Part shown: piece after piece, positions 671 to 56,352 of the stretch | How the letters are laid out: every line of letters starts with the position of its first letter | Numbering within the stretch: the first letter of the stretch is position 1 | NCBI GenBank assembly: GCA_049521735.1 | Contig: JBEKON010000001.1 | Location: 98,604-162,603, forward strand | Direction of reading: 5' to 3' | Length of the DNA stretch: 64,000 bases | Origin: Verrucomicrobiota bacterium | GTDB lineage: Bacteria; Verrucomicrobiota; Verrucomicrobiia; Limisphaerales; UBA11358 | Made by a program: the position numbers and the translations under genes | Notes under the pieces: model-generated | Told to the model about the DNA's origin: nothing | The model's input: the letters and a program-made list of their open reading frames with translations, nothing else | Databases searched by the model: none

Positions 671-3600
671 TTGCGCGAAAAATGCGGTGTGCAGGTGCGA
701 TTTCTCCTCGGCCCCGCCGGCAGCGGCAAGACGTTCCTTTGCCTGAAGGAAATCCGTGATGCACTGCGCGAAAATCCTGAAGGACCGCCGCTGATTTTGC
801 TGGCGCCCAAACAGACCACGTTTCAACTCGAACGCCAGTTGCTCACCGGCCATTCGCTTGACGGTTACACGCGACTCCACATTTTTTCATTCGAGCGGCT
901 GGCACGATTTGTTTTTGAAAAATCAAACATCGTGCCGCCTGAACCATTGAGTGACGAAGGCCGTGTGATGGTGTTGCGCGCGCTGTTGATGCGGCACGAA
1001 CATAAACTGAAACTTTTTCGCGGGAGCGCGCGCCGCCCCGGCTTCGCGCAGGAACTCGGCGGATTGTTCAATGAATTCCGGCAGCATCAATTGACGCCGC
1101 TCAAACTCCGCGCCCTTGCCCAACGCCCGGGCTTGCGTCCCGAACTTGGGGACAAGCTGCAAGACCTCGCGCTGCTGGACGACGCTTACGCGAAATGGCT
1201 CTCCGAACACGAATTGCAGGACGCGGATTGTTTGCTGGATACGGCGACCGAAGCGCTGCGCTCCGAACTTAAAACTCAAAACTCAAAACTTAAAATTCAA
1301 GGTTTGTGGTTGGACGGTTTTGCCGAAATGACGCCGCAGGAACTCGGTTTGCTCGCCACCATTCTGCCGTTTTGTGAACGCGCAACGCTCGCGTTCTGCC
1401 TCGACGAATCCCGCGCGCGGAAAGCCGAAAGTTCATGGCTCTCACTTTGGTCAGCCGTTGGCAAAACCTATCAACAATGCCGGTCGCGAATTGAAAATCT
1501 GCCCGATTGCACAATCAGCGTTGAAACACTTAAGCGTGTCCCGGACCAAAACCGCTTTACGGGCAGTCCCGCTTTGCAATTTTTGGAGGCAAACTGGTCG
1601 CAACCAACTCAAAACTTAAAACTTAAAATTCAAAACTCAATCCGGCTCGTTGCCTGTCCAAATCCCGAAGTCGAGGCCGTTCTGGCCGCGCGCGAAATTT
1701 TGGAATTCGTCCGCCGCGGCAATCGCTTTCGCGACTGCGCCGTGCTTGTTCGCAGTCTTGACGCCTATCACAAGCCGCTGGAGCGCGCATTTTGCCGTTA
1801 CGGCATCCCGTTTTTCCTGGACCAGCGCAAATCCGTTTCACATCACCCCCTCGGCGAACTGACCCGCAGTGTGGTCCGCACCGTTGCATTTGACTGGCGG
1901 CAGGAGGATTGGTTCGCCGCGCTGAAAGCCGGGTTTTCGCCGGTGGATGAGGCGGAGATTGACCGGTTGGAAAACGAGGCGCTGGCGCGCGGCTGGCGTG
2001 GCGCGAAATGGCGCGAACCCATTCAAATCGCCGACGATCCACAATTGGAAAAATCACTCGAACGGTTGCGCAAAAAAATCCTGCCACCGTTTGAAAATTT
2101 CGCCAAACAGCTTGTGCGGTTGAAAAATGAACCCACCGGCGGGCAATTGGCCGATGCGTTGCGCGAACTTTGGGGCGAACTCGATGTGGAGAAAACCTTG
2201 GAGCGTTGGAGCCTTGTCGAAACGGAACAATCCGCAATCCATTCGACCGTTTGGGATCAAATGAACTTGTGGCTGGAAAATCTGGCGCTTGCATTTCCAC
2301 GCGAGCCATTGCCGCTGCGCGACTGGCTGCCAATTTTGGAGGCGGGACTTTCGAACCTGACCGTTGGGGTGATTCCGCCCGTGCTCGACGAAGTGCTCGT
2401 CGGCGCGATTGACCGCGCGCGCAACCCCGATTTGAAACTGGCGCTCGTGCTCGGCGTGAATGAATCCGTTTTTCCCGCCGCGCCCGCCGCCCCGACGATT
2501 TTGACCGACGCCGACCGCGATGAATTGAATCCTGCGGTTGCGCTTGGCCCGGATTTGCGCGAGCGGCTGGCGCGCGAGCGTTATTATGGCTACATCACCT
2601 GCACCCGCGCGCGGGAAAAACTCGTTGTGACCTTTGCCCGCCTCGACGCCGATGGCAAAACACTGAACCCGTCGTCGCTCGTCGCACATCTGCGACAGAT
2701 GTTCCCTGAACTTGAAATTGAGGAATTCCACACGGACACCGATTTGGGCGAGGTGGAACATGTGAGTGAAATCGCGCCGATGCTGATGGGAGTTCAGGTA
2801 GGGCGGGCTGTCCCCAGCCCGCCGGAGCGGCGCGATGAGGACATCGCGCCCTACCAACAAAATTGGGCGAGGTTGCTGAAAATTCCAGTGCTCGCAACGC
2901 TGCTCGAAAATTTGCGCCAGTTGCGCGAACCGGATTCGGCGGAATGTTTGTCTCCCGCGCTCGCGGAAAAAATTTACGGCGAGACACTGCAAACGTCGGT
3001 CAGCCGGCTCGAGGAATTTGCCCAGTGCCCGTTTCGATTTTTCGTTCATTCCGGCTTGCGCGCCGAGGAGCGAAAAGTTTTCGAGCTGGATGCGCGCGAA
3101 CGCGGCAGTTTTCAGCACGAAGTTTTGAAAAAATTCCACGACGATTTGACGAAAGAGGGCAAACACTGGCGCGACATTGCGCCGTCGGAAGCGCGCGAAC
3201 GCGTTGGTAAAATTGCCGCCGGACTTGCGCAAGATTATCGCGACGGTTTGTTGCGCGCGGATGACCAAAGCCGGTTTGCCGCGCGCATGCTGACGGAGTC
3301 GCTGCAGGATTTTGTCGAGGTGCTCGTCGCGTGGATGCGCGGGCAGTACCAGTTTGATCCGGCGGTGGCTGAACTCGAATTTGGTTTCAACGTCGGCGGT
3401 GCGCCCGCGTGGGAAATCAATCTCGACGACCGGCACAAGCTCGCGTTGCGCGGACGGATTGACCGGGTTGATTTGTGCCGCGAAACCGGCGACAGCGCGT
3501 TATGCGTGGTGATGGATTACAAGTCCGGCGGCAAGAAGCTCGACGCGATTTTGGTCGAGCACGGCGTGCAATTGCAATTGCTCGCGTATTTGAACGCGCT

Positions 3601-9693: not shown

Positions 9694-10896
9694 TTAATCA
9701 ACACGTGCCGTCAGCAACAAATCCGGTCCGAGCCGCCTCCACTCGACGTTGCGAAGCCGGAGCGCCTCCGCCAGACTTTTCGCGCCGCCACCCGCGACCG
9801 CTTTGCGTGAGTCGCGTCCGCCCAGAATTTTTGGCGCGTAAAAAAACGCGATGCGATGTGCAAAACCGCCGAGCAGAAACGATGCGTTCACTTCGCCGCC
9901 GCCTTCGACCAGCAGGCTGGTAATATTTTGTGAGCCGAGTTTTTGCAACAGCCAACGCAGGTCAATTTGTTGGTAGGGCACGGTCTCCGCACCGTGCCGC
10001 GGCGCGCTGGGGACAGCGCGCCCTACCTTGATTATGGGCGCGACAAGAACATTCACGCGCCCGGCCAAAGCCGCGACGCGACTTTTCGGCGCGGATTTGC
10101 TCACGACAATCGTCGTCAGCGCCGCAAATTTGTCAGTTACAACTTTTGCCTTCAACGGTGTTCGTGCCATCGAATCCAAAATAATCCGGCGGAGCCGCAA
10201 ATTTTTGTTCTGACTTCTGACTCCTGACTTCTGCCTTCTGAATGTCAGGCTTGGGTTGTCCGCTAGAATCGTGTTGATGCCGACGAGAATCGCGTCGTTG
10301 CCTTGACGCAATTTCATGCCGTGCGCCCGAGCCTGCTTGCCGGTAATCCATTTCGACTCGCCACTCGCCGTGGCGATTTTCCCATCGAGCGTCATTGCCG
10401 CCTTCACGGTCACGAACGGCGTGCGGTGAACAATCCAATGGTTGAATGGTTCATTAAGCCGCTCACATTCATCGGCGAGTCTGGTAGGGACGGCTCGCCG
10501 AGCCGTCCGGTCATCACGGCGCAATAACCCTACCTCTGTTACTGCAATCCCGGCACGTTTCAAAATCCTGAAAGCACGACCGGCATGTTTCGGATTTGGA
10601 TCCGTCGCGCCGACAACCACGCGTTTGATTCCCGCCGCGATGATGGCGTCCGTGCAAGGTGGCGTGCGGCTGTGTGAGCTGCACGGTTCGAGCGTCACGT
10701 AAAGCGTTGCGCCGCGCGGCGAGTGCCCGCGTTTCTGCGCATCGCGGAGCGCTTCGATTTCCGCGTGCGGCAGACCCGCACGCCGGTGCCAGCCGCGCCC
10801 GATGATTTTTCCGCCTTTCGCCAATACCGCGCCGACCATCGGATTGGGCGAAGTCATGCCGTAGCCGCGTTGCGCCAAACTCAAAGCCAGGCGCAT
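9694..10896 (-). CDS. ribD: Bifunctional riboflavin biosynthesis deaminase/reductase RibD, carrying three in-frame repeat insertions
   Basis: MRLALSLAQRGYGMTSPNPMVGAVL, HAEIEAL, LEPC..H..TPPC deaminase motifs plus reductase domain. Start moved to ATG 10896 to clear the ftsY stop. Confidence 0.9.
   Translation of the reverse strand: MRLALSLAQRGYGMTSPNPMVGAVLAKGGKIIGRGWHRRAGLPHAEIEALRDAQKRGHSPRGATLYVTLEPCSSHSRTPPCTDAIIAAGIKRVVVGATDPNPKHAGRAFRILKRAGIAVTEVGLLRRDDRTARRAVPTRLADECERLNEPFNHWIVHRTPFVTVKAAMTLDGKIATASGESKWITGKQARAHGMKLRQGNDAILVGINTILADNPSLTFRRQKSGVRSQNKNLRLRRIILDSMARTPLKAKVVTDKFAALTTIVVSKSAPKSRVAALAGRVNVLVAPIIKVGRAVPSAPRHGAETVPYQQIDLRWLLQKLGSQNITSLLVEGGGEVNASFLLGGFAHRIAFFYAPKILGGRDSRKAVAGGGAKSLAEALRLRNVEWRRLGPDLLLTARVD
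9972..10027 (-). repeat. Type-1 GTAGG...CCTAC double-hairpin element, in frame inside ribD
   Basis: Gene-strand reading ggtagg-gcgcgctg tcccc agcgcgc-...-ggcacggtg cggag accgtgcc-ctacc = VGRAVPSAPRHGAETVPYQ. Confidence 0.9.
10210..10249 (-). repeat. Heptamer array (CTGACTT/CTGACTC/CTGCCTT x5) in frame inside ribD
   Basis: ctgacttctgactcctgacttctgccttctgaatgtcagg; encodes RRQKSGVRSQNKN on the gene strand. Confidence 0.9.
10483..10534 (-). repeat. GTAGG...CCTAC palindromic element (variant) in frame inside ribD
   Basis: ggtagggacggctcgccgagccgtccggtcatcacggcgcaataaccctacc; gene strand reads VGLLRRDDRTARRAVPT. Confidence 0.85.
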
Positions 10897-16124: not shown

Positions 16125-16209
16125 GTAGGAGCCGAGGTGACGAGGCTCTGACAGGTTTTCAATTTCTGATTTCCACTTTAGAAGTGAGCCTCCTTACGTC
16201 GGCTCCTAC
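16125..16209. repeat. GTAGGAGCC...GGCTCCTAC palindromic element (type 3)
   Basis: gtaggagccgaggtgacgaggctc...gagcctccttacgtcggctcctac followed by a T-run; likely also acts as the rpoZ terminator. Confidence 0.85.
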
Positions 16210-37827: not shown

Positions 37828-37887
37828 GGTAGGGCGGGCTGTCCCCAGCCCGCCGCCAACGGCGCGATGAGGACATCGCGCCCTACC
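37828..37887 (+). repeat. Type-1 GTAGG...CCTAC double-hairpin element immediately upstream of the recG ATG
   Basis: ggtagggcgggctgtccccagcccgccgccaacggcgcgatgaggacatcgcgccctacc. Near-identical to 2797-2855 but 1 nt longer, which gives TGA in the recG frame. Confidence 0.9.
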
Positions 37888-37891: not shown

Positions 37892-39949
37892 ATGCGTCCA
37901 CAAATCCAAGACAATCCGCTGGCTGCACCCGTAACGACATTGTGGGGTGTCGGCGCGGAACGCGCGGCGCAACTCGCACGCCTCGACATTCACACCATCG
38001 AGGATTTGTTGCTGCACCGGCCGCGGCGTTATGAAGATCGCCGTCATTTTCGCAGTATTGCCGGGTTGACCCGTGACGAAGCGGCGACCACGCGCGGCAC
38101 GATTGTCACGCTCGGCCTCAGACGTTTTCGCGGCGGCAACAAATCCGTTTTTGAAATCATTCTCGATGATGGCAGCGCCCGGTTGCATTGCCGCTGGTGG
38201 AATCTGCCGTTCATGCAAAATTATTTTGCGGTTGGCGACGAGATTTTCGTTTACGGCAAGCTCAATGAAACCAAGCCGCGCATCATTGACCATCCTGAAA
38301 CCGAAGTCATCGAGGGCGGCGAGGAGAGCTTCATCCACATCAACCGCATCGCGCCGGTGTATCCGCTCACCGAAGGCCTGCCGCAACGCTGGTTGCGCGG
38401 GCTGATCTGGCGGACGTTGGAAAAATTCGAGCGGCACATCGCCGAACCGTGGCCGGGAAATGTAGGACAGGTGTCCCGCCTGTCTCCATCTTCAAGTTCT
38501 AAAAATCAGGGACAGGCTGGAAGCCTGTCCTACCCGACGCGCGCCAACGCCATTCACATGACGCATTTCCCCGAAGAGCTGGCCGATGTGGAAATCGCAC
38601 GGCGACGGCTGGCGTTGGATGAATTCATTGCGTTGCAGCGTGACATGCAGCTTCGCCGGAAAAATTTCGAGGCCAAATCGCGCGCATTACCGTGCGGTGG
38701 TGACAATCGTTTGATGAAGCCGTTTCTGGCACGGCTCGGCTTCAAGCTCACCGACGCCCAGACGAAAGTCCTCCGCGAAATCCGGGCGGACATGAGCGGG
38801 GCGCATCCGATGCGGCGGCTGCTGCAAGGCGACGTCGGTTCAGGCAAGACGGTGGTTGCCGCCTGCGCGGCGCTCATGGCTTTGGAAAGCGGGTTCAATG
38901 TTGCGCTCATGGCGCCGACGGAAATCCTTGCGGAACAACATTTCAACAATTTTTCGCGCTGGTTTGGACCGCTCGGCGTGAAGGTGAAATTGCAAACAGG
39001 TTCACACAGGAGTAAGGAACAAGAAGTAAGGCGCAAGACCCTCGCAGCAAAACCCTTACTCCTTACTCCTTGCTCCTTGACCATCGGCACTCACGCCCTC
39101 ATCGAGTCGGGATTTGTATTGGAGAAATTGGGTTTGGTCATTATTGACGAGCAGCACAAGTTTGGCGTGGCACAGCGCGAACAGATCGTGCGTAAAGGCC
39201 GCTATCCGCATTTGCTCGTGATGACGGCTACCCCGATTCCGCGCACGCTCGGCCTTACGCTTTACGGCGACCTTGATATTTCGGTAATTGACCAGATGCC
39301 CGGTGGACGCGGCAGGATAAAAACTTTTCTACGCACGACCGAAAAATTGCCTGAAGTTTGGAAATTCATCCGCGAAAAACTGGCTGCCGGACGGCAGGCA
39401 TACGTCGTTTATCCGCGCGTGGAGGATTCAGGACCAAATGGGTTGAAAGCGGTGAAAAAGGAATTTGAAAATTTGAAGAAGCTGCTCGCGCCATTCCATG
39501 TCGGGTTGATGCACGGCCGGTTGAAAGGGCGGGAGAAGGACGAAGTAATGACAGCGTTTCGCGCGAACCAAATTCAGGCGCTCGTCGCGACGACGCTGGT
39601 TGAAGTGGGTTTGGATGTGCCGAACGCAACGATCATGCTGGTTGAAAATGCGGAGCGGTTCGGTCTGGCGCAATTGCATCAATTACGCGGGCGCATCGGG
39701 CGCGGCGCGCATGAGTCGCACTGCATTTTGATTTCCGACGCGAAGAATGAGGATGCAGGGCGGCGCTTGAAAGTTTTGGAAGAGACGACGGACGGGTTTC
39801 GCATTGCCGAGGTGGATTTGAAATTGCGCGGGCCGGGCGAATTGCTCGGCCAGCGGCAAAGCGGCCTGCCGAAATTCCGCTTCGGCAATCTGGCCGGGGA
39901 TTTGGATTTGATCCGGTTTGCGCGCGAGTTGGCGGCGCAAATAATTTAG
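37892..39949 (+). CDS. recG: ATP-dependent DNA helicase RecG, carrying two in-frame repeat segments
   Basis: LLLHRPRRYEDR wedge-domain start, GDVGSGKTVVA, DEQHKFGV, MTATPIPRTL, HGRLK..EK, QLHQLRGRIGRG. Confidence 0.9.
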   Translation: MRPQIQDNPLAAPVTTLWGVGAERAAQLARLDIHTIEDLLLHRPRRYEDRRHFRSIAGLTRDEAATTRGTIVTLGLRRFRGGNKSVFEIILDDGSARLHCRWWNLPFMQNYFAVGDEIFVYGKLNETKPRIIDHPETEVIEGGEESFIHINRIAPVYPLTEGLPQRWLRGLIWRTLEKFERHIAEPWPGNVGQVSRLSPSSSSKNQGQAGSLSYPTRANAIHMTHFPEELADVEIARRRLALDEFIALQRDMQLRRKNFEAKSRALPCGGDNRLMKPFLARLGFKLTDAQTKVLREIRADMSGAHPMRRLLQGDVGSGKTVVAACAALMALESGFNVALMAPTEILAEQHFNNFSRWFGPLGVKVKLQTGSHRSKEQEVRRKTLAAKPLLLTPCSLTIGTHALIESGFVLEKLGLVIIDEQHKFGVAQREQIVRKGRYPHLLVMTATPIPRTLGLTLYGDLDISVIDQMPGGRGRIKTFLRTTEKLPEVWKFIREKLAAGRQAYVVYPRVEDSGPNGLKAVKKEFENLKKLLAPFHVGLMHGRLKGREKDEVMTAFRANQIQALVATTLVEVGLDVPNATIMLVENAERFGLAQLHQLRGRIGRGAHESHCILISDAKNEDAGRRLKVLEETTDGFRIAEVDLKLRGPGELLGQRQSGLPKFRFGNLAGDLDLIRFARELAAQII
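38462..38533 (+). repeat. Type-2 GTAGGACAGG...CCTGTCCTAC element (72 nt) in frame inside recG
   Basis: gtaggacaggtgtcccgcctgtctccatct...cagggacaggctggaagcctgtcctac = VGQVSRLSPSSSSKNQGQAGSLSY. Confidence 0.9.
39009..39076 (+). repeat. Heptamer-arm hairpin (GTAAGGA/ACAAGAA vs CCTTACT x2) in frame inside recG
   Basis: ggagtaaggaacaagaagtaaggcgcaag - loop - cccttactccttactccttgctcc; encodes RSKEQEVRRKTLAAKPLLLTPCS. Confidence 0.85.
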
Positions 39950-46341: not shown

Positions 46342-46367
46342 AACCACGCCGATTTAAAGTGGGGACG

Positions 46368-46446
46368 AAGGCGTGTGTGGGAAGCTGTTTGCGCGGGTGA
46401 AAAACCACACCTGTGCCAACAGCTTCTCGCCACGCCTTTTTTCTTT
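46368..46446 (+). terminator. Long hairpin + T-run downstream of the 112-aa ORF
   Basis: aaggcgtgtgtgggaagctgtt ... aacagcttctcgccacgcctt followed by ttttttcttt. Confidence 0.5.
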
Positions 46447-46458
46447 GTGAGGAATGAT

Positions 46459-46490
46459 GCGGAACGCGGACAACTTGTCCGCGCTCCTAC
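46459..46490 (-). repeat. Single REP-like unit (GTAGGAG + hairpin) overlapping the murA stop codon
   Basis: Minus strand reads tcGTAGGAGCGCGGACAAGTTGTCCGCGttcc; the TAG is the murA stop. Confidence 0.7.
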
Positions 46491-47752
46491 GAATTTTCCT
46501 CAACGCGCCGAATCCGCGCGCCGAGTTGTTGCAGCTTGCGGTCAATATTTTCGTAGCCGCGGTCAATGTGATAAACGCGATTCACCTGCGTCGTGCCTTT
46601 GGCGGCCAAACCGGCAATCACCAGCGCTGCCGACGCGCGCAAATCACTCGCCATCACCGGCGCGCCGCTCAACGGCCGCCCGCCTTTGACAATTACGCTC
46701 GGCCCTTCGATCTCGATGTCCGCACCGAGCCGCGCCAGTTCGCTCACGTGCATGAAACGCGATTCAAAAATCCGTTCCGTGATGATGCTGATGCCCGGCG
46801 CAAGCGCGAGCAGCGACATTATCTGCGCCTGCACGTCCGTTGGAAACCCCGCATACGGCAGCGTCGTCACGTCCGCCGGCGAAAGTTTTCCGCTTCGATG
46901 AACCAATAAATTTACGCCGCGTTTTTCAACGGCAACACCCGCCTCATTCAGTTTGTCAATCACCGCGCCCATGTGATCGGCGCGCGCGCCTTTGAGCGTT
47001 ACTTCGCCGTTCGTCGCGGCGGCGGCAATCGCGTAAGTCGCCGCCTCAATCCGGTCGGGAATCACTTCATGCACCGCGCCATGCAGTTTTTTGACGCCCG
47101 TAATTGTAATCGTCGGACTGCCCGCGCCGGAAATTTTCGCGCCCATCGCGTTCAGAAACTTTGCCAGATCCACGAGTTCCGGCTCGCACGCCGCGCTTTC
47201 AATGACCGTCACGCCTTCGGCCAGCGTCGCCGCCATCATCACATTTGCCGTGCCCAGCACCGTTGAACCGGCGCGCCCGCCGAGGAACATCGGCGAACCG
47301 GTGAGTTGTTTCGCCGCCGCGCTGACGTAACCGCCTTCGATTTCGATTTTCGCGCCGAGCGCTTCAAAACCTTTCAAATGAAGATTGATGGGCCGTGCGC
47401 CGATAACACAACCGCCAGGCAGCGCCACACGCGCCTTTTTCAGCCGCCCCAACAGCGGCCCCATGATGCAAACCGAACCACGCATTTTGCGAACGAGTTC
47501 GTAGTCGCCGTAGCCGCGGATTTTCTGCGCGCGAACGGTTACCGTGCCGTTTTCAAATTTAGTGCTGGCGCCGAGCGATTCGAGAATCTGCGTCATGAAC
47601 CGCGAGTCGCTGAGGTCGGGCACACCATGGATGACGCACGGTTCGTCGGTCAGCAACGCAGCCGCCATGATGGGCAACGCGGCATTTTTGCTGCCGCTAA
47701 TCGTCACCTCGCCGTGCAATGGCACGCCGCCTTTGATCAAAAAACTTTCCAT
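46487..47752 (-). CDS. murA: UDP-N-acetylglucosamine 1-carboxyvinyltransferase
   Basis: MESFLIKGGVPLHGEVTISGSKNAALPIM...; start at ATG 47752. The Arg-rich extension in the ORF track is translation of the hairpin. Confidence 0.95.
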   Translation of the reverse strand: MESFLIKGGVPLHGEVTISGSKNAALPIMAAALLTDEPCVIHGVPDLSDSRFMTQILESLGASTKFENGTVTVRAQKIRGYGDYELVRKMRGSVCIMGPLLGRLKKARVALPGGCVIGARPINLHLKGFEALGAKIEIEGGYVSAAAKQLTGSPMFLGGRAGSTVLGTANVMMAATLAEGVTVIESAACEPELVDLAKFLNAMGAKISGAGSPTITITGVKKLHGAVHEVIPDRIEAATYAIAAAATNGEVTLKGARADHMGAVIDKLNEAGVAVEKRGVNLLVHRSGKLSPADVTTLPYAGFPTDVQAQIMSLLALAPGISIITERIFESRFMHVSELARLGADIEIEGPSVIVKGGRPLSGAPVMASDLRASAALVIAGLAAKGTTQVNRVYHIDRGYENIDRKLQQLGARIRRVEENS

Positions 47753-47765
47753 GTGAAATTGGTTT

Positions 47766-47826
47766 ATCCTTCTTGTTCTCGTCCTCGTCCTCATTTTTCG
47801 ATTACGAGGACGACGACGAGGACGAT
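47766..47826. repeat. Hairpin with period-6 arms (CTCGTC/CTCGTC vs GAGGAC/GACGAC)
   Basis: atccttcttgttctcgtcctcgtcctc - atttttcgattac - gaggacgacgacgaggacgat. Hand pairing gives a ~20-bp stem with 1 mismatch and 2 G-T. Covers the prmC 3' end and the murA leader. Confidence 0.85.
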
Positions 47827-48722
47827 TTGGCAATTAAAAATCTTTCGTGCTGACTGTAATCCTCCCTCACCGCTTCGACAATCCACTTTTCGTTTCCAAA
47901 AATTTTCCGAACTGCTTGAGCCTGGCCGTCTCCGAATTCAAGCATGATTTTCCCGTCCGATTTCAAAAATGCCGCTGCGTGCGCCGCAATCAAACGGTAA
48001 AAATCCAGGCCGTCCGTGCCACCGTCGAGCGCAACGCGCGGGTCAAAATCGCGGACTTCAGGTTGAAGTGTGGCAATTTCGGCGGATGGAATGTAAGGCG
48101 GATTACTAATGATGAGGTTGAAGCGCGCGTCGCCGGACAATGCGGCAAAACCGTCACTTTGTTGAAATTGGATTCGCTCGATGACATTGTGCCGGACGGC
48201 GTTTTGTCCGGCCAATGCGAGTGCATCCACCGAGGTGTCTGTCGCGACGATTTTTGCGTTCGGACATTTTACGGCCAGTGCGATGGCGATGCACCCGCTG
48301 CCGGTGCCGAAATCCAGAGCAGTTGGGACATCAACTTGGGAGGGACGGCGTGTCGCCGTCCCTAAATTTGGGTCGGCAGGATGCCGACCTTCCCCTGTTA
48401 AAAATTTCCACCCGAGTTCGGCGAGCAATTCGGTTTCCGGTCGTGGCGCGAGCGCGTGGGGGTTCACAGCGATCTCAAGTCCGCAGAATGAAGTTGAGCC
48501 GACAATGTGCTGAAGTGGTTCGTGTTGGCCACGGCGTTTGACCATCTCGCGCAACGCGTCCACTTCTGTCGGCGTAAGCGTGCGCTCGAAGTTTAGATAC
48601 AATTTCATGCGCGGCAGCTTGAGCAGATGTGCGAGCAGGAGTTCGGTTTGCAGGCGCGGCGATTCGACGCCTTTTTTGGCCATAAAATCCGCGCTCTTCT
48701 GAATCGCTTCAAGAACTGTCAC
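47802..48722 (-). CDS. prmC: Release-factor glutamine N5-methyltransferase PrmC/HemK, with in-frame repeat insertion and hairpin-derived poly-Ser tail
   Basis: LDFGTGSGCIAIALA, IISNPPYIP; C-terminus ...LIAKSSSSSSS. Confidence 0.85.
   Translation of the reverse strand: MTVLEAIQKSADFMAKKGVESPRLQTELLLAHLLKLPRMKLYLNFERTLTPTEVDALREMVKRRGQHEPLQHIVGSTSFCGLEIAVNPHALAPRPETELLAELGWKFLTGEGRHPADPNLGTATRRPSQVDVPTALDFGTGSGCIAIALAVKCPNAKIVATDTSVDALALAGQNAVRHNVIERIQFQQSDGFAALSGDARFNLIISNPPYIPSAEIATLQPEVRDFDPRVALDGGTDGLDFYRLIAAHAAAFLKSDGKIMLEFGDGQAQAVRKIFGNEKWIVEAVREDYSQHERFLIAKSSSSSSS
48338..48395 (-). repeat. Double-hairpin palindromic element (type 4) in frame inside prmC
   Basis: gggagggacggcgtgtcgccgtccc-taaatttg-ggtcggcaggatgccgacc-ttcccc; gene strand encodes GEGRHPADPNLGTATRRPSQ. 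Confidence 0.85.
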
Positions 48723-48785
48723 ATGGACAACTTAAACCGGAGCGATACGCTTGAACAAGCGGCGTGTGACTGCCAAAATCAAGTC

Positions 48786-49349
48786 ATGAATGTACGGGTC
48801 AAAATGTTCCCTGTTGCGCTTTGGCTTGCCGTTTTCGGCACGGCCTGCAGCGCGGACAACACAAAATCCACCGGAGGTAAAACCATGAATATTCAAATCG
48901 CCAGCACCGTCTTTGCCGACGGCCAGCCGATTCCAGCAAAATACACTTGTGACGGACAGAATGTGTCGCCGCCGTTGAAATGGTCAAACGCGCCCGCAAA
49001 CACGAAGAGCTTCGCGCTTATCGCCGACGACCCAGACGCGCCGGGTGGCACGTGGGTGCATTGGGTGCTTTATGATTTGCCGGCGACTACAACCGAACTC
49101 GCCGAGAATACTCCCAAATCGCAACAATTGTCCGGCGGCGCGAAGCAGGGGTTGAACAGTTGGCCGCACTTGGGTTACGACGGGCCGTGTCCGCCGCCCG
49201 GCAAACCGCATCGCTACTTTTTCAAACTCTACGCACTCGACATGTTGCTCGATCTCAAACCCGGCGCGACAAAAAAAGATTTGCTCAAGGCGATGGAAGG
49301 CCATGTCCTCGCCGAAGGGCAATTGATGGGGACGTATCAGCGGCGGTGA
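48786..49349 (+). CDS. YbhB/YbcL (PEBP/Raf-kinase-inhibitor-like) family protein, secreted
   Basis: IPAKYTCDGQNVSPPLKW, DDPDAP, WVHWVLYDL, HRYFFKLYALD. Confidence 0.85.
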   Translation: MNVRVKMFPVALWLAVFGTACSADNTKSTGGKTMNIQIASTVFADGQPIPAKYTCDGQNVSPPLKWSNAPANTKSFALIADDPDAPGGTWVHWVLYDLPATTTELAENTPKSQQLSGGAKQGLNSWPHLGYDGPCPPPGKPHRYFFKLYALDMLLDLKPGATKKDLLKAMEGHVLAEGQLMGTYQRR

Positions 49350-49354
49350 ATTGA

Positions 49355-49424
49355 CCACAAAGACACGAAGAGAAAATTTTCTTTGCGTCTTTGTGCCTTT
49401 GCGTTGAACTTTGCCTCTTCGTGG
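49355..49424. repeat. Complex imperfect palindrome with period-8 arms (CTTTGCGT/CTTTGTGC)
   Basis: ccacaaagacacgaagagaaaattttctttgcgtctttgtgcctttgcgttgaactttgcctcttcgtgg; shares the cctttgcgt string with 16781 and 28005. Confidence 0.75.
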
Positions 49425-49433
49425 TAAAAATTT

Positions 49434-50360
49434 ATGAGCAAAACCGCATTGCTGTTTGCCGGACAAGGCACGCAGGCCGTCGGCATGGGCAAAGACCTCG
49501 CCGAAAAATTTCCGTCGGCCAAAGCCTGGTTCGACCGCGCCAACGGCGCGCTCGGCTGCGATCTGGCTTCGATCTGTTTCACCGGCCCGGAAGCCGAACT
49601 CACCAAAACCGAAAATGCACAGCCGGGAATTTTTCTCGTGAGCTGGGTCGCGTTTCTATTGCTCAAGGAACAGGCGCCGTTGCTTAAATTCGACGCCACA
49701 GCTGGTTTGTCGCTCGGCGAATTCACAGCGCTGACGGCGGCGGGCGCAATGAATTTCGAGGACGGTCTGCGGGTCGTGCGCCAGCGCGGACGATTCATGC
49801 AGGAAGCCTGCGATGCCACGCGCGGCGGCATGGCGGCGGTCATCGGCTTGGACGAAACGCTCACACGCGAGGTTTGTGCCGAAGCCGGCGTGGTGCTGGC
49901 AAACCTGAATTGTCCCGGCCAGCTCGTGATTTCCGGCGAGATGGACAAGATCGCCAAAGCCGTCGAACTCGCCAAAGCCAGGGGCGCAAAACGCGCGATT
50001 CCACTACCGGTCGCCGGCGCCTATCACTCGCCGCTCATGGCCAGTGCACAGCCAAAACTTCAAGCTGAATTGGCCAAAATGAAATTATCATCACTGGTTG
50101 TGCCGGTGATTTCGAACGTGACGGGACAACCGCATGGCGGCACAACGGAAATTTCCGCCCGGCTTGTCGAGCAGATCACGTCATCGGTGTTCTGGGAAAA
50201 ATCCATGCGATATCTGTTGGCACAAGGATTCACGCGGTTTATAGAACTCGGGCCCGGCACGGCATTGAGCGGTTTCATGAAACGAATTGATAAAAATGCG
50301 CAGATGCTCAACGTGGCGGACGTGGCAAGCCTGGAAGCGACGGCGAAAGTGCTGGTGTAG
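49434..50360 (+). CDS. fabD: Malonyl-CoA:ACP transacylase
   Basis: FAGQGTQ, GLSLGEF, full length 308 aa; the stop TAG lies in the GTAG terminus of the next element. Confidence 0.95.
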   Translation: MSKTALLFAGQGTQAVGMGKDLAEKFPSAKAWFDRANGALGCDLASICFTGPEAELTKTENAQPGIFLVSWVAFLLLKEQAPLLKFDATAGLSLGEFTALTAAGAMNFEDGLRVVRQRGRFMQEACDATRGGMAAVIGLDETLTREVCAEAGVVLANLNCPGQLVISGEMDKIAKAVELAKARGAKRAIPLPVAGAYHSPLMASAQPKLQAELAKMKLSSLVVPVISNVTGQPHGGTTEISARLVEQITSSVFWEKSMRYLLAQGFTRFIELGPGTALSGFMKRIDKNAQMLNVADVASLEATAKVLV

Positions 50361-50461
50361 CACCCGCGTCTCGCGGGTGACGTTGGGCGTCCCGCCCGGC
50401 GCAAGTTTCCGCAAAGGTTCAGGCGGGACGCCTGAACCGACCCGCCGGAGGCGGGTGCTAC
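50357..50461 (+). repeat. 105-nt GTAGCACCCGC...GCGGGTGCTAC multi-hairpin palindromic element
   Basis: gtagcacccgcgtctcgcgggtg ... ggcgtcccgcc ... ggcgggacgcc ... cccgccggaggcgggtgctac. Confidence 0.85.
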
Positions 50462-50488
50462 CGACGGCTTTCGTCTCGACATTTTTTA

Positions 50489-50510
50489 TGTGCATTCGTG
50501 TGCATTCGTG
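50489..50510 (+). repeat. Decamer tandem duplication
   Basis: tgtgcattcg tgtgcattcg tg, upstream of fabG. Confidence 0.8.
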
Positions 50511-50527
50511 GTTAAACAATCGCCGTC

Positions 50528-51271
50528 ATGAAACAACTTGAGAATCAAGTCGCCGTCGTCACCGGCGCGGGCCGGGGTATTGGCCGCGCCATCGCGTTGA
50601 AATTCGCCGCTCATGGAGCTGATATCGTGGCTGTGGATTTGAAAACCGAGTTTGTGCAGGAAACAGTGGATGAGGTGCGCAAGCTCGGGCGCAAGGCTTG
50701 GGCGGTGGCCGCCAACGTGTCCGAGGCCGCCAGCGTCGAGGCCGCTGCTGAACAGATTTTGAAAGAGGCCGGTCGGGTGGACATTCTCGTGAACAACGCC
50801 GGCATCACCAAGGACGGCCTGCTCATGCGCATGAGCGAGGCGGATTGGGACGCCGTGCTGGACATCAATCTCAAGGGAACGTTTCTCTTCACCAAGGCAT
50901 TCAGCCGCGCATTCCTGAAACAGAAATCCGGCCGCATCGTCAACATCGCCTCGGTGATCGGCTTGATCGGCAATGCCGGCCAGTGCAATTACGCGGCGAG
51001 CAAGGCCGGCGTCATCGGCTTCACAAAATCCGTCGCGCGGGAACTGGCATCGCGTGGCATCACCGCGAACGCCATCGCTCCCGGGTTCATCGAAACCAAG
51101 ATGACCGAGGCGCTCAGTCCGGAGGCGCGTGCCGCCTTGCTCAAACAGATTCCGCTGGCCAGTCTGGGCCAGCCGGAGGACGTGGCGGAGGTGGCACTAT
51201 TTTTCGCCGGCCCGGCGGCGCGTTACGTCACCGGGCAGGTTTTGGCGGTGGACGGCGGGATGGTGATGTGA
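50528..51271 (+). CDS. fabG: 3-oxoacyl-ACP reductase
   Basis: VTGAGRGIGRAIA, NNAGIT, YAASKAG SDR motifs within the fab cluster. Confidence 0.95.
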   Translation: MKQLENQVAVVTGAGRGIGRAIALKFAAHGADIVAVDLKTEFVQETVDEVRKLGRKAWAVAANVSEAASVEAAAEQILKEAGRVDILVNNAGITKDGLLMRMSEADWDAVLDINLKGTFLFTKAFSRAFLKQKSGRIVNIASVIGLIGNAGQCNYAASKAGVIGFTKSVARELASRGITANAIAPGFIETKMTEALSPEARAALLKQIPLASLGQPEDVAEVALFFAGPAARYVTGQVLAVDGGMVM

Positions 51272-51342
51272 TTGAAAAAATTTATGATTCAAGGCTTGAC
51301 GATTTTGGCATTCATGGCATAGAGACGGGTCAAAATTAACTT

Positions 51343-51588
51343 ATGGCTGACAAACCTATTGACCAACGGGTAAAGGACATCATCGTTGAACAGCTCGGTG
51401 TGAAGCCGGATCAGGTGACGCCGGAGGCAAAATTCATCGAAGACCTCGGCGCGGATTCGCTCGACACGGTCGAGTTGATCATGGCGCTGGAGGAGGAATT
51501 CGGCATCGAAGTGCCGGATGAACAGGCTGAAAAACTCACAACTGTCGGCGATGTCGTCAAATACATCGAAGAACATCAGCAAAAATAG
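51343..51588 (+). CDS. acpP: Acyl carrier protein
   Basis: [20 protein letters not shown]. Confidence 0.95.
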
Positions 51589-51607
51589 TTGCGACCTTGA
51601 GTGCTTC

Positions 51608-51655
51608 GGGGCAGTTTCGGCTGGATTCGGCTTGAACTGCCCCGTTTGATTTTTT
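51608..51655 (+). terminator. Hairpin + T-run between acpP and fabF (partial terminator/attenuator)
   Basis: ggggcagtttcggctggattcggcttgaactgcccc followed by gtttgatttttt. Confidence 0.7.
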
Positions 51656-52915
51656 ATGGCAAACCATTCAACAGAACGTCGTGTCGTCATTACCGGCCTC
51701 GGCGTGGTGACGCCGCTGGGAAATCAACTCGGCGTTTTTTGGGATAACCTCGTCGCCGGCAAATGCGGCATTGACCGCATCAGTTCCTTTGACGCGACAC
51801 CGTTTGACTGCCAAATCGCCGGCGAGGTGAAAGATTTTGATCCCACGCCCGCATTCCCGTCGCCGAAGGAAATTCGTCGCACGGATCGTTATTCGCAATT
51901 TGGCATTTATGCCGGGTATCAGGCCTTGCTGGATTCCGGCCTCGACCTCGATAAGGAAAACCGCGACGAAATCGGTGTCATCATCGGTTCGGGCATCGGC
52001 GGACTGCAAACGACCGCCGAGCAACATATAGTTTTGCTCAACCGCGGGCCGGGGCGGCTGTCGCCATTCATGATTCCGATGCTCATCAGCAACATGGCTT
52101 CGGGCCTGTTTTCGATGTTTTACAAATTGCGTGGTCCGAATTTCGCCACCTGTTCGGCCTGCGCAACGTCCAACCACGCCATCGGCGAAGCCTGGCGCGC
52201 CATCAAAATGGGCGATGCGCAGGTGATGTTCGCCGGCGGCGCGGAAGCGGCGGTCATGCCCGTTGGCATCGGCGGGTTTTGCGCCATGAAAGCCTTGAGC
52301 ACGCGCAACGACGACCCCCAACACGCCTCGCGGCCATTCGACAAGGAACGCGACGGCTTCGTCATGGGCGAAGGTGCGGGCGTGATTGTGCTCGAAGAAT
52401 TGGAGCACGCCAAAAAACGCAGCGCGAAAATTTATTGCGAAATCGTCGGCTACGGAAACACCGCCGACGCTTACCATTTGACCGCGCCATCGCCCGGAGG
52501 TGAAGGTGCGGTGCGTTGCATGAGAATGGCTTTGCGCAATGGCGGGTTGAACCTGGAAGACGTTTCCTACATCAACGCTCATGGCACATCCACACAGCAA
52601 GGCGACCTTTGCGAAACGCAAGCCATCAAAACCGTTTTCGGCGGGCACGCAAAAAAGCTCGCCGTCAGTTCCACCAAAGGCGCAACCGGCCACATGCTCG
52701 GCGCGGCAGGCGCGGTGGAAATGAGTGTCTGTGCCCTCGCCATCAAACATGGCATCGTCCCACCGACCATCAATTATCAGGTGCCCGATCCAGAATGTGA
52801 TTTGGATTACGTTCCCAACACCGCGCGCAAGTTGAAGGTCAACGCTGTTATCAACAATTCATTCGGTTTCGGCGGCCACAACGCGAGCATCGCGGCGAAG
52901 AAGTTTGAGGGCTGA
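51656..52915 (+). CDS. fabF: Beta-ketoacyl-ACP synthase II
   Basis: ATCSACATSNHAIG, HGTSTQQGD, GHMLGAAG. Confidence 0.95.
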   Translation: MANHSTERRVVITGLGVVTPLGNQLGVFWDNLVAGKCGIDRISSFDATPFDCQIAGEVKDFDPTPAFPSPKEIRRTDRYSQFGIYAGYQALLDSGLDLDKENRDEIGVIIGSGIGGLQTTAEQHIVLLNRGPGRLSPFMIPMLISNMASGLFSMFYKLRGPNFATCSACATSNHAIGEAWRAIKMGDAQVMFAGGAEAAVMPVGIGGFCAMKALSTRNDDPQHASRPFDKERDGFVMGEGAGVIVLEELEHAKKRSAKIYCEIVGYGNTADAYHLTAPSPGGEGAVRCMRMALRNGGLNLEDVSYINAHGTSTQQGDLCETQAIKTVFGGHAKKLAVSSTKGATGHMLGAAGAVEMSVCALAIKHGIVPPTINYQVPDPECDLDYVPNTARKLKVNAVINNSFGFGGHNASIAAKKFEG

Positions 52916-52927
52916 AGCATCTTCAAA

Positions 52928-53000
52928 ATAGGACAGGCTTCCAGCTTGTCTCCATCTCAAAGCGGGAAAAAGTCATGGACGGGCAAGATGCCTGTCCTAC
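52928..53000 (+). repeat. Type-2 (A/G)TAGGACAGG...CCTGTCCTAC element between convergent fabF and pyrF
   Basis: ataggacaggcttccagcttgtctccatct...ggacgggcaagatgcctgtcctac; its right terminus supplies the pyrF stop codon. Confidence 0.9.
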
Positions 53001-53701
53001 TTTAAAGACTCCAAAATCTTCTCCGCTGCTTCCCGCGGATTTTCCGCCGCATAAATCGGCCGGCCAATCACCAGCCAGTTTGCCCCGGCGGCAATGGCTT
53101 CCCGCGGCGTCAGCGTGCGCTTTTGGTCGTCGGCTTTTTCTGTGCCAGTGCGAACACCGGGTGTGATGAGTTGAATGCCGGCAGTCAACATTTGACGCAG
53201 CTCGGCCACTTCCAACGGCGAGCAAATAAGACCGCGCAGGCCGGCTTTGGTGGCCATGTTCGCGAGCCGGCGCACCTGGCTGGCGACATTCGGGTCAAGG
53301 CCGATTTCGCTTAACGACTGGCTGGTGAGGCTTGTGAGCACGGTCACGCCCAGCACCAACGGCGCATTGTGACCGGTTTGTTTCGCGGTTTTTTGCGCCG
53401 ATTCCTCCGCCGCGCGCATCATGTCCACTCCGCCGCTGACATGCACGGTGAGCATTTGCACGTCCAATCGCACGGCCGAGGCAACGGCTCTGGCGACGGT
53501 GTTCGGGATGTCGTGGAATTTTAAATCAAGAAAAACCGCGGCCCCCGTCGCGCGAATCCGCCGGACAATATCCGGCCCGGCGCTGGTGAACAATTCGCTG
53601 CCAATCTTGAACGCGCCGACCACCGGCGCGATTTTCTTGGCCAACTCCAGCGCGGCTTCGGCGGTTGGCACATCGAGCGCGGCGATGATGGGATTACGCA
53701 T
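52997..53701 (-). CDS. pyrF: Orotidine 5'-phosphate decarboxylase
   Basis: IIAALDV, FLDLKFHDIPNTV, PGVR. Confidence 0.9.
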   Translation of the reverse strand: MRNPIIAALDVPTAEAALELAKKIAPVVGAFKIGSELFTSAGPDIVRRIRATGAAVFLDLKFHDIPNTVARAVASAVRLDVQMLTVHVSGGVDMMRAAEESAQKTAKQTGHNAPLVLGVTVLTSLTSQSLSEIGLDPNVASQVRRLANMATKAGLRGLICSPLEVAELRQMLTAGIQLITPGVRTGTEKADDQKRTLTPREAIAAGANWLVIGRPIYAAENPREAAEKILESLK

Positions 53702-53717
53702 GGTTCGAATTATTTAA

Positions 53718-55204: not shown

Positions 55205-56352
55205 AAAGTCCTAAACTTTTGGTTCGTCCGCTCGTGCGCGAGTTGTACCCCTACGTTTATGGCGAGCAGCCAAAGATCAAAGGGTTGATCAAGCTCAACA
55301 CGAACGAAAATCCGTATCCGCCGTCGCCGAAGGTGCTGGCGGCGGTCAGAGCGGCGGTGGACGGGCGGTTACGGAAGTATCCAAACCCGACGGCACAGAC
55401 GCTGCGCGAAAAGCTGGCGAAGTTGCACGGTTGTCACGCGGACAACATCATCGTGGGCAACGGCTCGGACGAATTGCTGGCATTGGCCACGCGGTGCTTT
55501 GTGGAGCCAAGCGTAGGACAGGCTTCCAGCCTGTCTCCATCTGCAAAGAAAAAGTCAGAGACAGGCAAGATGCCTGTCCTACGTTGCAACATCATCCAAT
55601 ACTTCACACCAAGTTATTCGCTCTACCCAGTGCTCGCGGATATTCACGGTGCGGCGAAGAATCCCGTGTCACTCAAGCCTGATTTTAGCCTGCCGAGTGT
55701 GGCGGAATTGAAGCATGGAAGGGTGTGGAGATTTAACGCCGCACTGACTTATGTGACGACACCGAACGCACCCAGCGGTCGCGGTTATTCGATAAAGGAA
55801 TTGGAATCGCTTTGCCGGGCGCAACGCGGTGTGGTGGTGCTGGATGAGGCTTATGTGGATTTCGCGGAGGAAAACGCGATGAAACTGGCGTTGAAATATC
55901 CGCATGTGCTCGTCGCGCGGACATTCTCGAAGGCGTATTCGCTCTGCTTCCAGCGTGTCGGTTATTTTGTCGGGCATCGCGACCTCATCGCGGCGCTGCA
56001 CAAAATTCGCGACAGTTACAATGTCAACGGCCTCGGCCAGATCGCCGCAGTGGCAACGCTGGGTGATTTGCCGTATTACCGCGCGAATTTCCGGAGAATT
56101 ATCGCCACGCGTGAGTGGTTGAGCCGCGAATTGACGAAGCTCGGTTTCCGTGTTTTTCCGAGTCAGGCGAATTTTATTCTCGTCCAGCCGTCATTGTTTT
56201 CCGCGAAAGACTGGCTGGAAAAACTTCGAGACCGGAAAATTCTGGTCCGCTGGTTTAATTTCCACGAGGTAAAAAAATATCTGCGCATCACAATTGGCAA
56301 TCCCTCGGAAGTGGAAGCATTGGTGCAAGCGGCGCGGAAGATTTTGTTGTAG
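55201..56352 (+). CDS. hisC: Histidinol-phosphate aminotransferase, carrying an in-frame repeat insertion
   Basis: LNTNENPYPPSP, GNGSDELL, FSKAYSL; ATGA overlap with hisD. Confidence 0.9.
   Translation: MKSPKLLVRPLVRELYPYVYGEQPKIKGLIKLNTNENPYPPSPKVLAAVRAAVDGRLRKYPNPTAQTLREKLAKLHGCHADNIIVGNGSDELLALATRCFVEPSVGQASSLSPSAKKKSETGKMPVLRCNIIQYFTPSYSLYPVLADIHGAAKNPVSLKPDFSLPSVAELKHGRVWRFNAALTYVTTPNAPSGRGYSIKELESLCRAQRGVVVLDEAYVDFAEENAMKLALKYPHVLVARTFSKAYSLCFQRVGYFVGHRDLIAALHKIRDSYNVNGLGQIAAVATLGDLPYYRANFRRIIATREWLSRELTKLGFRVFPSQANFILVQPSLFSAKDWLEKLRDRKILVRWFNFHEVKKYLRITIGNPSEVEALVQAARKILL
55513..55582 (+). repeat. Type-2 GTAGGACAGG...CCTGTCCTAC element in frame inside hisC
   Basis: gtaggacaggcttccagcctgtctccatctgcaaagaaaaagtcagagacaggcaagatgcctgtcctac = VGQASSLSPSAKKKSETGKMPVL. 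Confidence 0.9.

Follow-up and report, generated by a model that had tools for sequence, protein, structure and literature searches.

GTAG-headed repeats, probably REP elements, lie within genes and on the stop codons of murA, fabD and pyrF in a Verrucomicrobiota bacterium

The window analyzed here is a 64-kb (64,000-nt) stretch of a Verrucomicrobiota genome. Three of its genes, murA, fabD and pyrF, whose identities are backed by Pfam and PDB homologues, end in TAG stop codons located within the GTAG heads of short palindromic repeats, as a preliminary description of this DNA had claimed and as the ORF and head coordinates bear out. The genes and the repeats, which we interpret below as very probable REP units and REPINs, are as follows:

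46487-47833, minus strand: murA ORF (Pfam EPSP_synthase, 3.7e-105), ending ...aat tcG TAG
46459..46490, minus strand: single REP unit GTAGGAGCGCGGACAAGTTGTCCGCGTTCCGC, head at 46486-46490 (GTAGG); −22.7 kcal/mol, z = −6.5
49434-50360, plus strand: fabD (malonyl-CoA:ACP transacylase), ending gtg ctg gtG TAG
50357..50461: composite palindrome of 105 nt with GTAGC / GCTAC heads and nested hairpins (inverted pair I1); −72.7 kcal/mol, z = −5.8
52928..53000: REPIN of the GTAGGACAGGC family between the convergent genes fabF and pyrF (I4); z = −4.9
52997-53701, minus strand: pyrF (OMP decarboxylase; Pfam OMPdecase, 9.8e-57), ending tta aaG TAG

The murA stop is the TAG at 46487-46489 within GTAGG (46486-46490, minus strand), the pyrF stop is the TAG at 52997-52999 within GTAGG (52996-53000, minus strand), and the fabD stop is the TAG at 50358-50360 within GTAGC (50357-50361), the left head of the 105-nt palindrome. 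The generalization that all termini read GTAGG holds for murA and pyrF but not for fabD. The far head of the pyrF REPIN has decayed to ATAGG (52928-52932), and this REPIN is identical across the near-identical strains L002-L006. PDB alignments extend to residues 444-447 of 448 in MurA, from which we conclude that its C-terminus is unshortened, to residues 303-307 of 308 in FabD and to residue 233 of 234 in PyrF. Because the MurA alignments start at residue 27-28, the true murA start probably lies 3′ of the listed TTG. The head TAG of about 30 pyrF relatives stands at the position where REP-free relatives have TGA or TAA; whether or not they carry a REP, the relatives finish at one position in ..ILESLx plus stop. 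By these comparisons, all three proteins end level with their homologues, with no C-terminal trimming, and the suggestion that the repeats had captured or trimmed gene ends finds no support. C-terminal extension is absent from PyrF and amounts to at most ~3 residues in MurA and FabD. In each of the three genes the head TAG stands where the ancestral stop was, and the G of the head closes the final sense codon.

Our results indicate that the repeats are, with high probability, ordinary GTAG-tagged REP units, mostly arranged as inverted doublets (REPINs). They very likely represent the non-autonomous single-strand-DNA kind of element whose spread is thought to be due to RAYTs (REP-associated tyrosine HUH/Y1 transposases). 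Every unit begins with GTAG followed by an 8-11 bp hairpin, the stems of window units measuring 7-11 bp and the loops 3-6 nt. As in GTAG-tagged REPs, an unpaired GTAG lies directly 5′ of a short imperfect palindrome of 20-40 bp whose stem measures ~6-13 bp, and the minimum-energy folds of the REPINs pair both arms into a long hairpin. The window contains 17 GTAG-plus-hairpin units versus 0-5 for seven other 4-mer heads (GTGG, GCAG, GTAA, ATAG, GTAC, GTCG and GGAG), and 49 occurrences of GTAGG versus 21.4 ± 4.7 expected. Fold z-scores of the elements range from −4.9 to −9.9, and both their copy number and their folding are far above shuffled controls. Inverted pairs were detected at I1, I4-I7, I9 and I11. 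Inspection of the flanks of all ten elements in the 64 kb revealed no flanking direct repeats. The GTAGGACAGGC..GCCTGTC family occurs across MAGs whose labels span at least 10 phyla, among them a Ca. Xenobia MAG (L114) in which GTAGGACAGGC units in inverted orientation flank a 152-aa protein that matches NCBIfam NF047646, “REP-associated tyrosine transposase” (93.7 bits, cutoff 80), as well as Pfam Y1_Tnp. A tblastn search found no RAYT gene in the 64-kb window, and RAYT-driven REPIN transposition has never been directly demonstrated in any organism (bioRxiv 10.1101/2021.07.10.451892). Two other identities were rejected: intrinsic terminators, as the hairpins have no T-run, and Rickettsia-type RPEs or CGTC REPs, as the heads are GTAG(G/C). 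The stretch 46300-53200 has 12 terminator-like sites, a number equal to the shuffle expectation, and not one of them coincides with a REP. REPs are expected to lie mainly outside genes, 3′ of coding regions, and here five of the ten elements are intragenic. This still allows REP membership, because the same exception is documented for the verrucomicrobium Opitutus terrae, in which Di Nocera, De Gregorio and Rocco (2013, BMC Genomics 14:522, PMC3733652) found the highest count of intragenic REPs and listed the encoded peptides. Two elements are intergenic and supply no stop codon to a real gene:

16125..16209: REPIN of 85 nt with GTAGGAGCCGAGG heads (I9)
37829..37886: REPIN of 58 nt (I6), ending 5 nt 5′ of the recG ATG

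The five intragenic copies lie in four hosts confirmed by Pfam as real genes:

2798..2854: REPIN of 57 nt, GTAGGGCG family (I5), in addB (671-4102, plus strand), read as VGRAVPSPPERRDEDIAPY
9973..10026: REPIN of 54 nt in ribD (9694-10944, minus strand), read as VGRAVPSAPRHGAETVPY
10484..10533: REPIN of 50 nt in the ribD inter-domain linker, read as VGLLRRDDRTARRAVPT, its gene-proximal arm decayed
38462..38533: REPIN of 72 nt, GTAGGACAGGC family (I11), in recG (37892-39949, plus strand), read as VGQVSRLSPSSSSKNQGQAGSLSY
55513..55582: REPIN of 70 nt, GTAGGACAGGC family (I7, z = −9.9), in a hisC-type aminotransferase ORF (54895-56352, plus strand) whose real start is near 55200

The positions given previously were correct except for the two ribD copies, which start at 9973 and 10484 on the plus strand rather than at 9972 and 10483. 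The arms of the addB copy are identical to those of the intergenic copy at 37829-37886. Surviving copies are placed in linkers or loops of addB, ribD, recG and hisC. Homologue alignments reveal additional residues at the ribD, hisC and recG copies; no homologue gap could be demonstrated at the addB copy, where the region is too divergent. The ribD allele carrying the 9973..10026 copy (site 2) exceeds empty alleles by exactly 18 codons, which corresponds to the 54-nt GTAGG..CCTAC element. The two ribD loops have been colonized by at least six different repeat families.

We observed that the G of GTAGG occupies codon position 1 in all five intragenic copies, so that coordinate arithmetic confirms the GTA-GGN reading claimed for them. 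This uniformity is nevertheless mostly forced, because an in-frame TAG cannot survive within a gene and because, of the five elements, three (2798, 10484-10533 and 38462) have internal stops in the other non-TAG phase. Only two free choices are left (p ~0.25), and the shared phase is weak evidence within the window. A wider phase bias, of ~10 to 1 across genomes, is likely; the other phase is used in Pseudomonas, whose GTAG REPs are read as xGT-AGx and yield RSGFSRD-type peptides (published tables, PMC3733652). In a ribD relative, a GTGG-headed palindrome is read cgG TGG, the very phase that would give TAG in a GTAG head.

The overlap of heads with stop codons is, on the other hand, strongly non-random. 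Among 121 sequences, 59 of 240 GTAG heads form the stop of ORFs 120 or more codons long, whereas every other offset within ±90 nt places at most 5 heads on a long-ORF stop. Control stop 4-mers yield 1-4 each (pooled, 20/276 over 11 controls versus 59/240 for GTAG; Fisher p = 4e-8). These tallies rest on crude, longest-ORF calls that include some antisense ORFs, and on loci ascertained by an intact head. Measured per position, exact coincidence of a head with a stop codon is in ~70-fold excess, and no comparable pile-up occurs at the tail ends of single REPs. Viewed from the genes (greedy-called, at least 150 codons), a REP hairpin follows 37 of 109 GTAG stops and none of the 497 other stops. 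Overlap is therefore far above random placement, and the claim of the preliminary description, against which chance-level overlap was to count, stands on this point.

That one terminal motif can give either read-through or termination depending on phase is a direct consequence of the genetic code. By the same code, an intragenic copy can persist only if its TAG falls outside the reading frame and the element is open throughout, with a length that is a multiple of three. At gene 3′ ends the TAG can fall in frame, where it serves as the stop codon. The dual use is then most plausibly a by-product of purifying selection on a very abundant TAG-containing repeat and not a designed switch, a view that we hold with considerable confidence. 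The register between head and stop was most likely established when the element inserted or shortly afterwards. For its origin we tentatively favor, at somewhat less than even confidence, a head-linked site preference near stop codons, followed by retention of those copies whose TAG takes over termination. No single insertion model accommodates all the data. On a model of insertion inside the last codon, displaced native stops should be enriched just past the element, but no such enrichment was seen (7/59 versus ~5.5 expected).

Neutral stop-codon drift, in which a REP lands a few codons downstream, the native stop is lost and the ORF extends to the head TAG, needs no site preference and is a possible but rather doubtful explanation. 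Heads do lie near gene ends in general (~45 have a long-ORF stop at most 30 nt upstream), only heads show the effect, which would follow if TAG alone matters, and pyrF relatives differ by 0-7 residues in their C-terminal tails, which shows that stop positions wander. Drift, however, predicts about twice as many out-of-frame as in-frame nearby heads, where ~45 and 59 were counted, and C-terminal extensions, of which PyrF has none and MurA and FabD show no more than ~3 residues. Three convergent gene pairs in which both heads of one REP/REPIN serve as stops are also difficult to reconcile with it.

A bolder proposal combines active targeting of stop codons by REP/REPIN integration, with G-TAG replacing the last base and the native stop, in some cases at both genes of a convergent pair, and horizontal spread of one GTAGGACAGGC..GCCTGTC REP-RAYT lineage over many soil and peat phyla. 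We regard this combination as unlikely.

More doubtful still, and in our view improbable, is that the hairpin integrates 3′ of a pre-existing GTAG, the head being the target and xxG-TAG stops and GTA-G codon pairs its natural sites. IS608, of the IS200/IS605 family, integrates 3′ of its TTAC cleavage tetranucleotide, and by analogy such behavior would account for the exact stop register, for unrelated hairpins all having a GTAG head and for different repeat families at the same ribD sites. G-TAG stops also number 72, versus 22-36 for other N-TAG stops, after removal of recognized REPs. Against this, GTAG is absent from empty ribD alleles at either insertion site; the site-2 insert comprises 54 nt with both heads, whereas the model would add 50 nt and cause a frameshift; and, of the five intragenic elements, three have lengths divisible by three and only one a length of 1 mod 3. 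Finally, the GTGG-headed element that a relative (L210) has at ribD site 1 begins 1 nt from the element of the window, so the two have no common anchor.

Functional selection for a stable hairpin starting at the stop codon, which would stabilize the mRNA 3′ end or tune termination or translation, appears very unlikely. In the predicted folds, strong hairpins have the UAG paired at their base, and the elements are fixed in every near-identical strain sampled. In E. coli, REPs located up to 15 nt from a stop are described as stalling ribosomes, in papers cited in PMC12306157 and in bioRxiv 10.1101/2024.07.17.603846. This effect lowers expression, however, which would be odd to favor in murA, fabD and pyrF, the hairpins have no T-tails, and heads 3-10 nt 3′ of a stop should do just as well but are, per position, ~10 times less frequent than exact overlap. 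The reading of the elements as MITEs from a DDE transposon, intrinsic terminators or chance palindromes is hardly credible and already largely refuted: the GTAGG...CCTAC symmetry does resemble MITE terminal inverted repeats, but target-site duplications and T-tails are missing, the insert at ribD site 2 has precisely the length of the element, each arm forms a hairpin of its own behind a GTAG, single units exist (murA), a GTAGGACAGGC unit flanks the RAYT in L114, and copy number and folding exceed those of shuffled sequences.

The closest known systems are the GTAG REPs of the 2013 study, whose termini often give the TAG stop of flanking ORFs (PMC3733652), as here. These REPs, especially the O. 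terrae GTAG-17/18/19 families, share the GTAG head, 6-13 bp stems, frequent inverted dimers, many intragenic copies, often in DNA-repair genes (here addB and recG), and encoded peptides that begin with V-G or V-A and end in ..P-Y (PMC3733652). In contrast, stem and loop sequences differ here, half of the window elements are intragenic, and the host is an uncultured peat bacterium represented by metagenome contigs only. REPIN-RAYT systems (Bertels and Rainey) likewise comprise inverted REP doublets forming one long hairpin and REPs flanking a RAYT, as in L114, but they are described as lineage-specific and vertically inherited, whereas one stem is here common to MAGs labelled as at least 10 phyla. 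Rickettsia palindromic elements are also in-frame palindromic repeats in loops and linkers of essential genes; several of their families are longer, and their tag is CGTC instead of GTAG (PMC3733652), so that they have no built-in stop codon. IS200/IS605 elements (IS608, ISDra2) share the HUH/Y1 transposase relationship, sub-terminal hairpins, a tetranucleotide beside the hairpin and the lack of target duplication, but the elements studied here are non-autonomous, 30-105 nt long and devoid of an internal transposase, and their intragenic copies do not support integration 3′ of a tetranucleotide.

Since the dual behavior, read-through or stop, was already described in 2013 (PMC3733652), our observations constitute a new example of a known phenomenon, to which they add the reading-phase analysis and the quantified stop overlap that the earlier study does not give. 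These repeats create inserts of 16-24 residues in real enzymes as well as real stop codons, and it follows that neither gene callers nor repeat maskers should assume that they are purely extragenic. New here are the ~70-fold excess on stops, the preserved ancestral stop, ribD loops occupied by at least six repeat families and the cross-phylum stem, measurements that make insertion-site choice by REPINs more testable. If stop targeting and horizontal spread were true, they would provide the first sequence-level handle on RAYT site choice and would contradict the view of REPIN-RAYT systems as strictly lineage-bound.

The elements of the window are, by their anatomy, GTAG-tagged REPs and REPINs. 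Each unit consists of GTAG(G/C) followed by a stem of 7-11 bp and a loop of 3-6 nt, and most units are paired tail to tail with their heads outward. GTAGG occurs 49 times in the window against 21.4 expected, GTAG heads a hairpin in 17 units as compared with 0-5 for seven other heads, and the fold z-scores of the elements range from −4.9 to −9.9. Neither target-site duplications at the element flanks nor T-tails at the elements were found in the window. There are at least four sequence families (GTAGGGCG.., GTAGGACAGGC.., GTAGGAGC.. and GTAGCACCCGC..), and no pre-insertion allele was found among contigs L002-L006 from other metagenome samples (98.5-100% identical), all of which carry the elements. 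The REPIN at 37829-37886 ends 5 nt upstream of the recG ATG (37892), so that the palindrome contains or adjoins the ribosome-binding region of recG.

The preliminary description placed the stop codons of three genes inside repeats, and this holds for all three: each TAG corresponds to bases 2-4 of a GTAG head that is directly followed by its hairpin.

46487-47833, minus strand, murA, 3′ end ...tcG TAG
49434-50360, plus strand, fabD, 3′ end ...gtG TAG
52997-53701, minus strand, pyrF, 3′ end ...aaG TAG

The identities of these genes are backed by Pfam and PDB homologues, and REP heads account for 3 of the 13 TAG stops within the window. Another TAG ends an ORF at 8500-8997 (minus strand) that overlaps a tRNA-Leu (anticodon gag, 8427-8511), the only Rfam hit of the window being a tRNA; this ORF may be spurious.

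Stop overlap was tallied in the window and 120 genome blocks matching the REP pattern (121 sequences, 240 GTAG+hairpin units), using heuristic gene calling on loci selected for an intact head and with some antisense-ORF artefacts. Overlap is above random: 59 of the 240 heads provide the stop of an ORF with 120 codons or more, a per-position excess of ~74-fold, while no other offset within ±90 nt holds more than 5 heads and just 7 ORFs cross a head in a different frame. Hairpins preceded by one of eleven control 4-mers that contain a stop gave 1-4 cases for each 4-mer (20/276 vs 59/240, Fisher p = 4e-8). In greedy-called genes with 150 codons or more, a REP hairpin directly follows 37 of 109 GTAG stops and 0 of 497 other stops. 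Packing of this kind can go as far as convergent pairs of long ORFs in which both stops are the two GTAG heads of one REP or REPIN, as three genome blocks show, the intergenic region being a single palindrome in each.

L125, 2987-3015, single-palindrome convergent intergenic region
L047, 968-1068, single-palindrome convergent intergenic region
L012, 5453-5558, single-palindrome convergent intergenic region

In the called genes with 150 codons or more, G precedes a TAG stop 109 times and A, C or T 22-36 times; a count that took in every ORF down to 120 codons was contaminated by antisense ORFs, and the excess persists on the greedy-called genes. Subtraction of the 37 stops with a recognised REP hairpin leaves 72 G-TAG stops, which hints at many decayed REP heads. 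We rejected the excess as proof that REPs create stops: because the loci were chosen for their REPs, it cannot separate a head brought in by the element from a GTAG that was targeted.

Native gene ends were not trimmed. MurA, FabD and PyrF align with solved homologues up to 1-3 residues from the C-terminus, and about 30 pyrF relatives (62-84% identity) end in ...ILESLx and have their stop where the window has its own. Most pyrF alleles without a REP have TGA or TAA there, preceded by codons such as aat, aaa and att, and a few have TAG without a recognisable REP; alleles with a REP (the window, the relatives' loci L131, L141 and L142, and probably L139) read xxG TAG. Since both kinds of allele stop at one position, the TAG of the head occupies the ancestral stop position. 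Of the final sense codon, the element dictates the third base alone, and there is no evidence for either captured or trimmed gene ends. A TTTGA located 3′ of the pyrF element is probably there by chance. A second repeat class, made of inverted repeats of short tandem units (CACAGAT/CACGGAT-like, GTCACGTATCAC-like and two copies of tgtgcattcg), has no relation to the GTAG elements and is also present in relatives.

53716-53850, second-class repeat
20070-20166, second-class repeat
50478-50505, second-class repeat
L147 and L154 (relatives' loci), second-class repeats downstream of pyrF

Five further copies lie inside genes, all of them real.

2798-2854, REP element in addB
9973-10026, REP element in ribD (site 2)
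10484-10533, REP element in ribD (site 1)
38462-38533, REP element in recG
55513-55582, REP element in a hisC-type aminotransferase gene, encoded peptide VGQASSLSPSAKKKSETGKMPVL

GTAGG begins at the first codon position in all five, which bears out the Val-Gly reading. Alignments indicate that the encoded residues are extra relative to homologues at the ribD, hisC and recG copies; no gap is visible at the addB copy against B. subtilis AddB, the region being too divergent, and the arms of that copy are identical to those of the intergenic copy 37829-37886. A hairpin (GGAGGGACGGCGTGTCGCCGTCC, 48339-48361) with a GGAG head, similar to the GTAGGGACGG unit, lies within a prmC-like ORF (47802-48722, minus strand) and may represent a sixth copy inside a gene, now decayed. 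In L004, a strain variant from a different metagenome sample with 99.3% identity through pyrF-hisD, another gene, of 336 aa, takes the place of the aminotransferase gene downstream of hisD (L004 1-1187, compared with the window from 55173 onward).

A phase rule was also proposed for these copies; the 5/5 for GTA-G stands, but it is mostly forced. An in-frame TAG is lethal to intragenic survival, which leaves just two phases inside genes, and all-frame translation reveals that internal stops shut the other, xGT-AGx, in three of the five elements (2798, 10484-10533 and 38462). In the family of the 2798 copy the phase-closing TGA lies within a conserved arm and is present in the intergenic copy too. 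Only two free choices are therefore left (p ~0.25). Beyond the window, crude ORF calls yielded 15 GTA-G and 10 xGT-AGx heads, the latter mostly in small ORFs or close to ORF starts; with such cases dropped by inspection and window copies 38462 and 10533, undetected by the detector, added, the tally is ~10 to 1 for GTA-G (binomial p = 0.012). A genuine phase bias is likely, though not universal. At almost the same ribD site as a window copy, the relative's locus L210 carries a different palindrome (termini GTGGGGCGAG...CTCGCCCCAC) read as cgG TGG GGC, that is, in the "forbidden" phase with TGG instead of TAG. That one motif has two outcomes depending on phase is trivially true as logic and non-random at stops, and weak as a statement on phase.

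The ribD gene also reveals what is inserted. Nearly all of 120 RibD relatives (72-83% identity) are occupied at both sites by several unrelated repeat families, and a few empty alleles occur, at site 1 (P0010, P0068, P0105) and site 2 (P0099, P0115). Compared with the empty alleles, site 2 of the window is longer by exactly 18 codons, the extra 54 nt being GTAGG...CCTAC at the DNA level, and no GTAG was found at site 2 of the empty alleles; the heads are thus part of the insert. Lengths are multiples of three in three of the five intragenic copies (57, 54 and 72). Both ribD loops have the look of permissive sites with a history of repeated hits. Site 1 alone holds at least six unrelated repeat families among relatives (also in loci L127-L129, L210 and L211), for example VGSSRRDDRTARRAVPT, WGEATDEP..SPHQ, FGLRRHVGALKSGDMSPHS, FGVPRSRGPNRLKAELQT, AGSAGILPA..RRQDAGAP and GKGRARHSVRAV..AEDCAPY.

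Within genes a selection filter operates against TAG in frame, and the register between heads and stop codons is exact and non-random. Our best guess for this register, to which we would give not quite an even chance, is that heads would prefer the immediate neighbourhood of stop codons and that copies whose TAG takes over termination would be retained. Neutral drift, with the stop shifting to the first in-frame TAG that is conserved, accounts for part of the effect, but it predicts more out-of-frame neighbours than observed (~45 vs 59) and C-terminal extensions, none of which was observed. IS608-like integration 3′ of a GTAG already present conflicts with the 3n lengths of intragenic copies and with the GTAG-free empty ribD alleles. 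Insertion within the final codon, which would move the native stop to beyond the element, is not supported, as far-end stops are not enriched (a stop at, or one base past, the far end in 7 of 59 cases vs ~5.5 expected). Pure compaction by deletional squeeze was rejected because the tails of 138 single REPs do not pile up at convergent stops, none being closer than 5 nt.

REPs inside ORFs were reported in several species, with the highest count in the verrucomicrobium Opitutus terrae, many hosting genes being replication or repair genes (PMC3733652). The O. terrae GTAG-18 (VGPALAAG...PPY) and GTAG-17 (VAGVADPG...) peptides (PMC3733652, Additional file 3) correspond to the GTA-G phase, as in the window. 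Peptides of O. terrae GTAG-19 are found in each of the three forward frames (VARASRP, GTGVPPV and WHGRPAR types), and Pseudomonas GTAG-1 copies in either of the two phases without TAG (VGAGLPA and RSGFSRD types; PMC3733652, Additional file 3); back-translation of the GTAG-19 peptides suggests that their head is GTGG, not GTAG. Reading phase was not analysed in that study (PMC3733652). The elements of the window behave as the GTAG REPs already described, intragenic REPs and TAG stops are both already published, and only the explicit statement on phase is new.

The pattern GTAGGACAGGC-N6-GCCTGTC is represented by three elements in the window.

38462-38533, element with GTAGGACAGGC-N6-GCCTGTC
52928-53000, element with GTAGGACAGGC-N6-GCCTGTC
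55513-55582, element with GTAGGACAGGC-N6-GCCTGTC

Scanned over 185,579 species-representative genomes, it matched at least 120 blocks, with ~17 chance matches expected (an estimate for 18 fixed bases). The matches listed are in MAGs whose labels cover at least 10 phyla and include Acidobacteriota, Planctomycetota, Armatimonadota, Chloroflexota, Lentisphaerae, Kiritimatiellae, Spartobacteria and others; carriers include a 5.17-Mb Acidobacteriota chromosome and contigs >1 Mb. Loops differ by lineage (CCTCCYGG in Bryobacterales, ATTCCT in Pyrinomonadaceae, GCCCTC in Thermoanaerobaculia). In the usual description, REPIN-RAYT systems are bound to a lineage. A search with an E. coli RAYT sequence found no RAYT in the window and a single match elsewhere, in a Ca. 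Xenobia MAG, which Pfam and NCBIfam confirmed.

L114, 3445-3903, minus strand, RAYT of 152 aa
L114, 3402-3425, plus strand, GTAGGACAGGC-type REP
L114, 3952-3975, minus strand, GTAGGACAGGC-type REP, inverted relative to the former

The 152-aa protein scores 93.7 bits with the NCBIfam equivalog model of REP-associated tyrosine transposase, above the cutoff of 80, and matches Pfam Y1_Tnp; L114 3402-3975 is a REPtron. The testable residue of these observations is the choice of insertion site, together with a REP family that crosses phyla.
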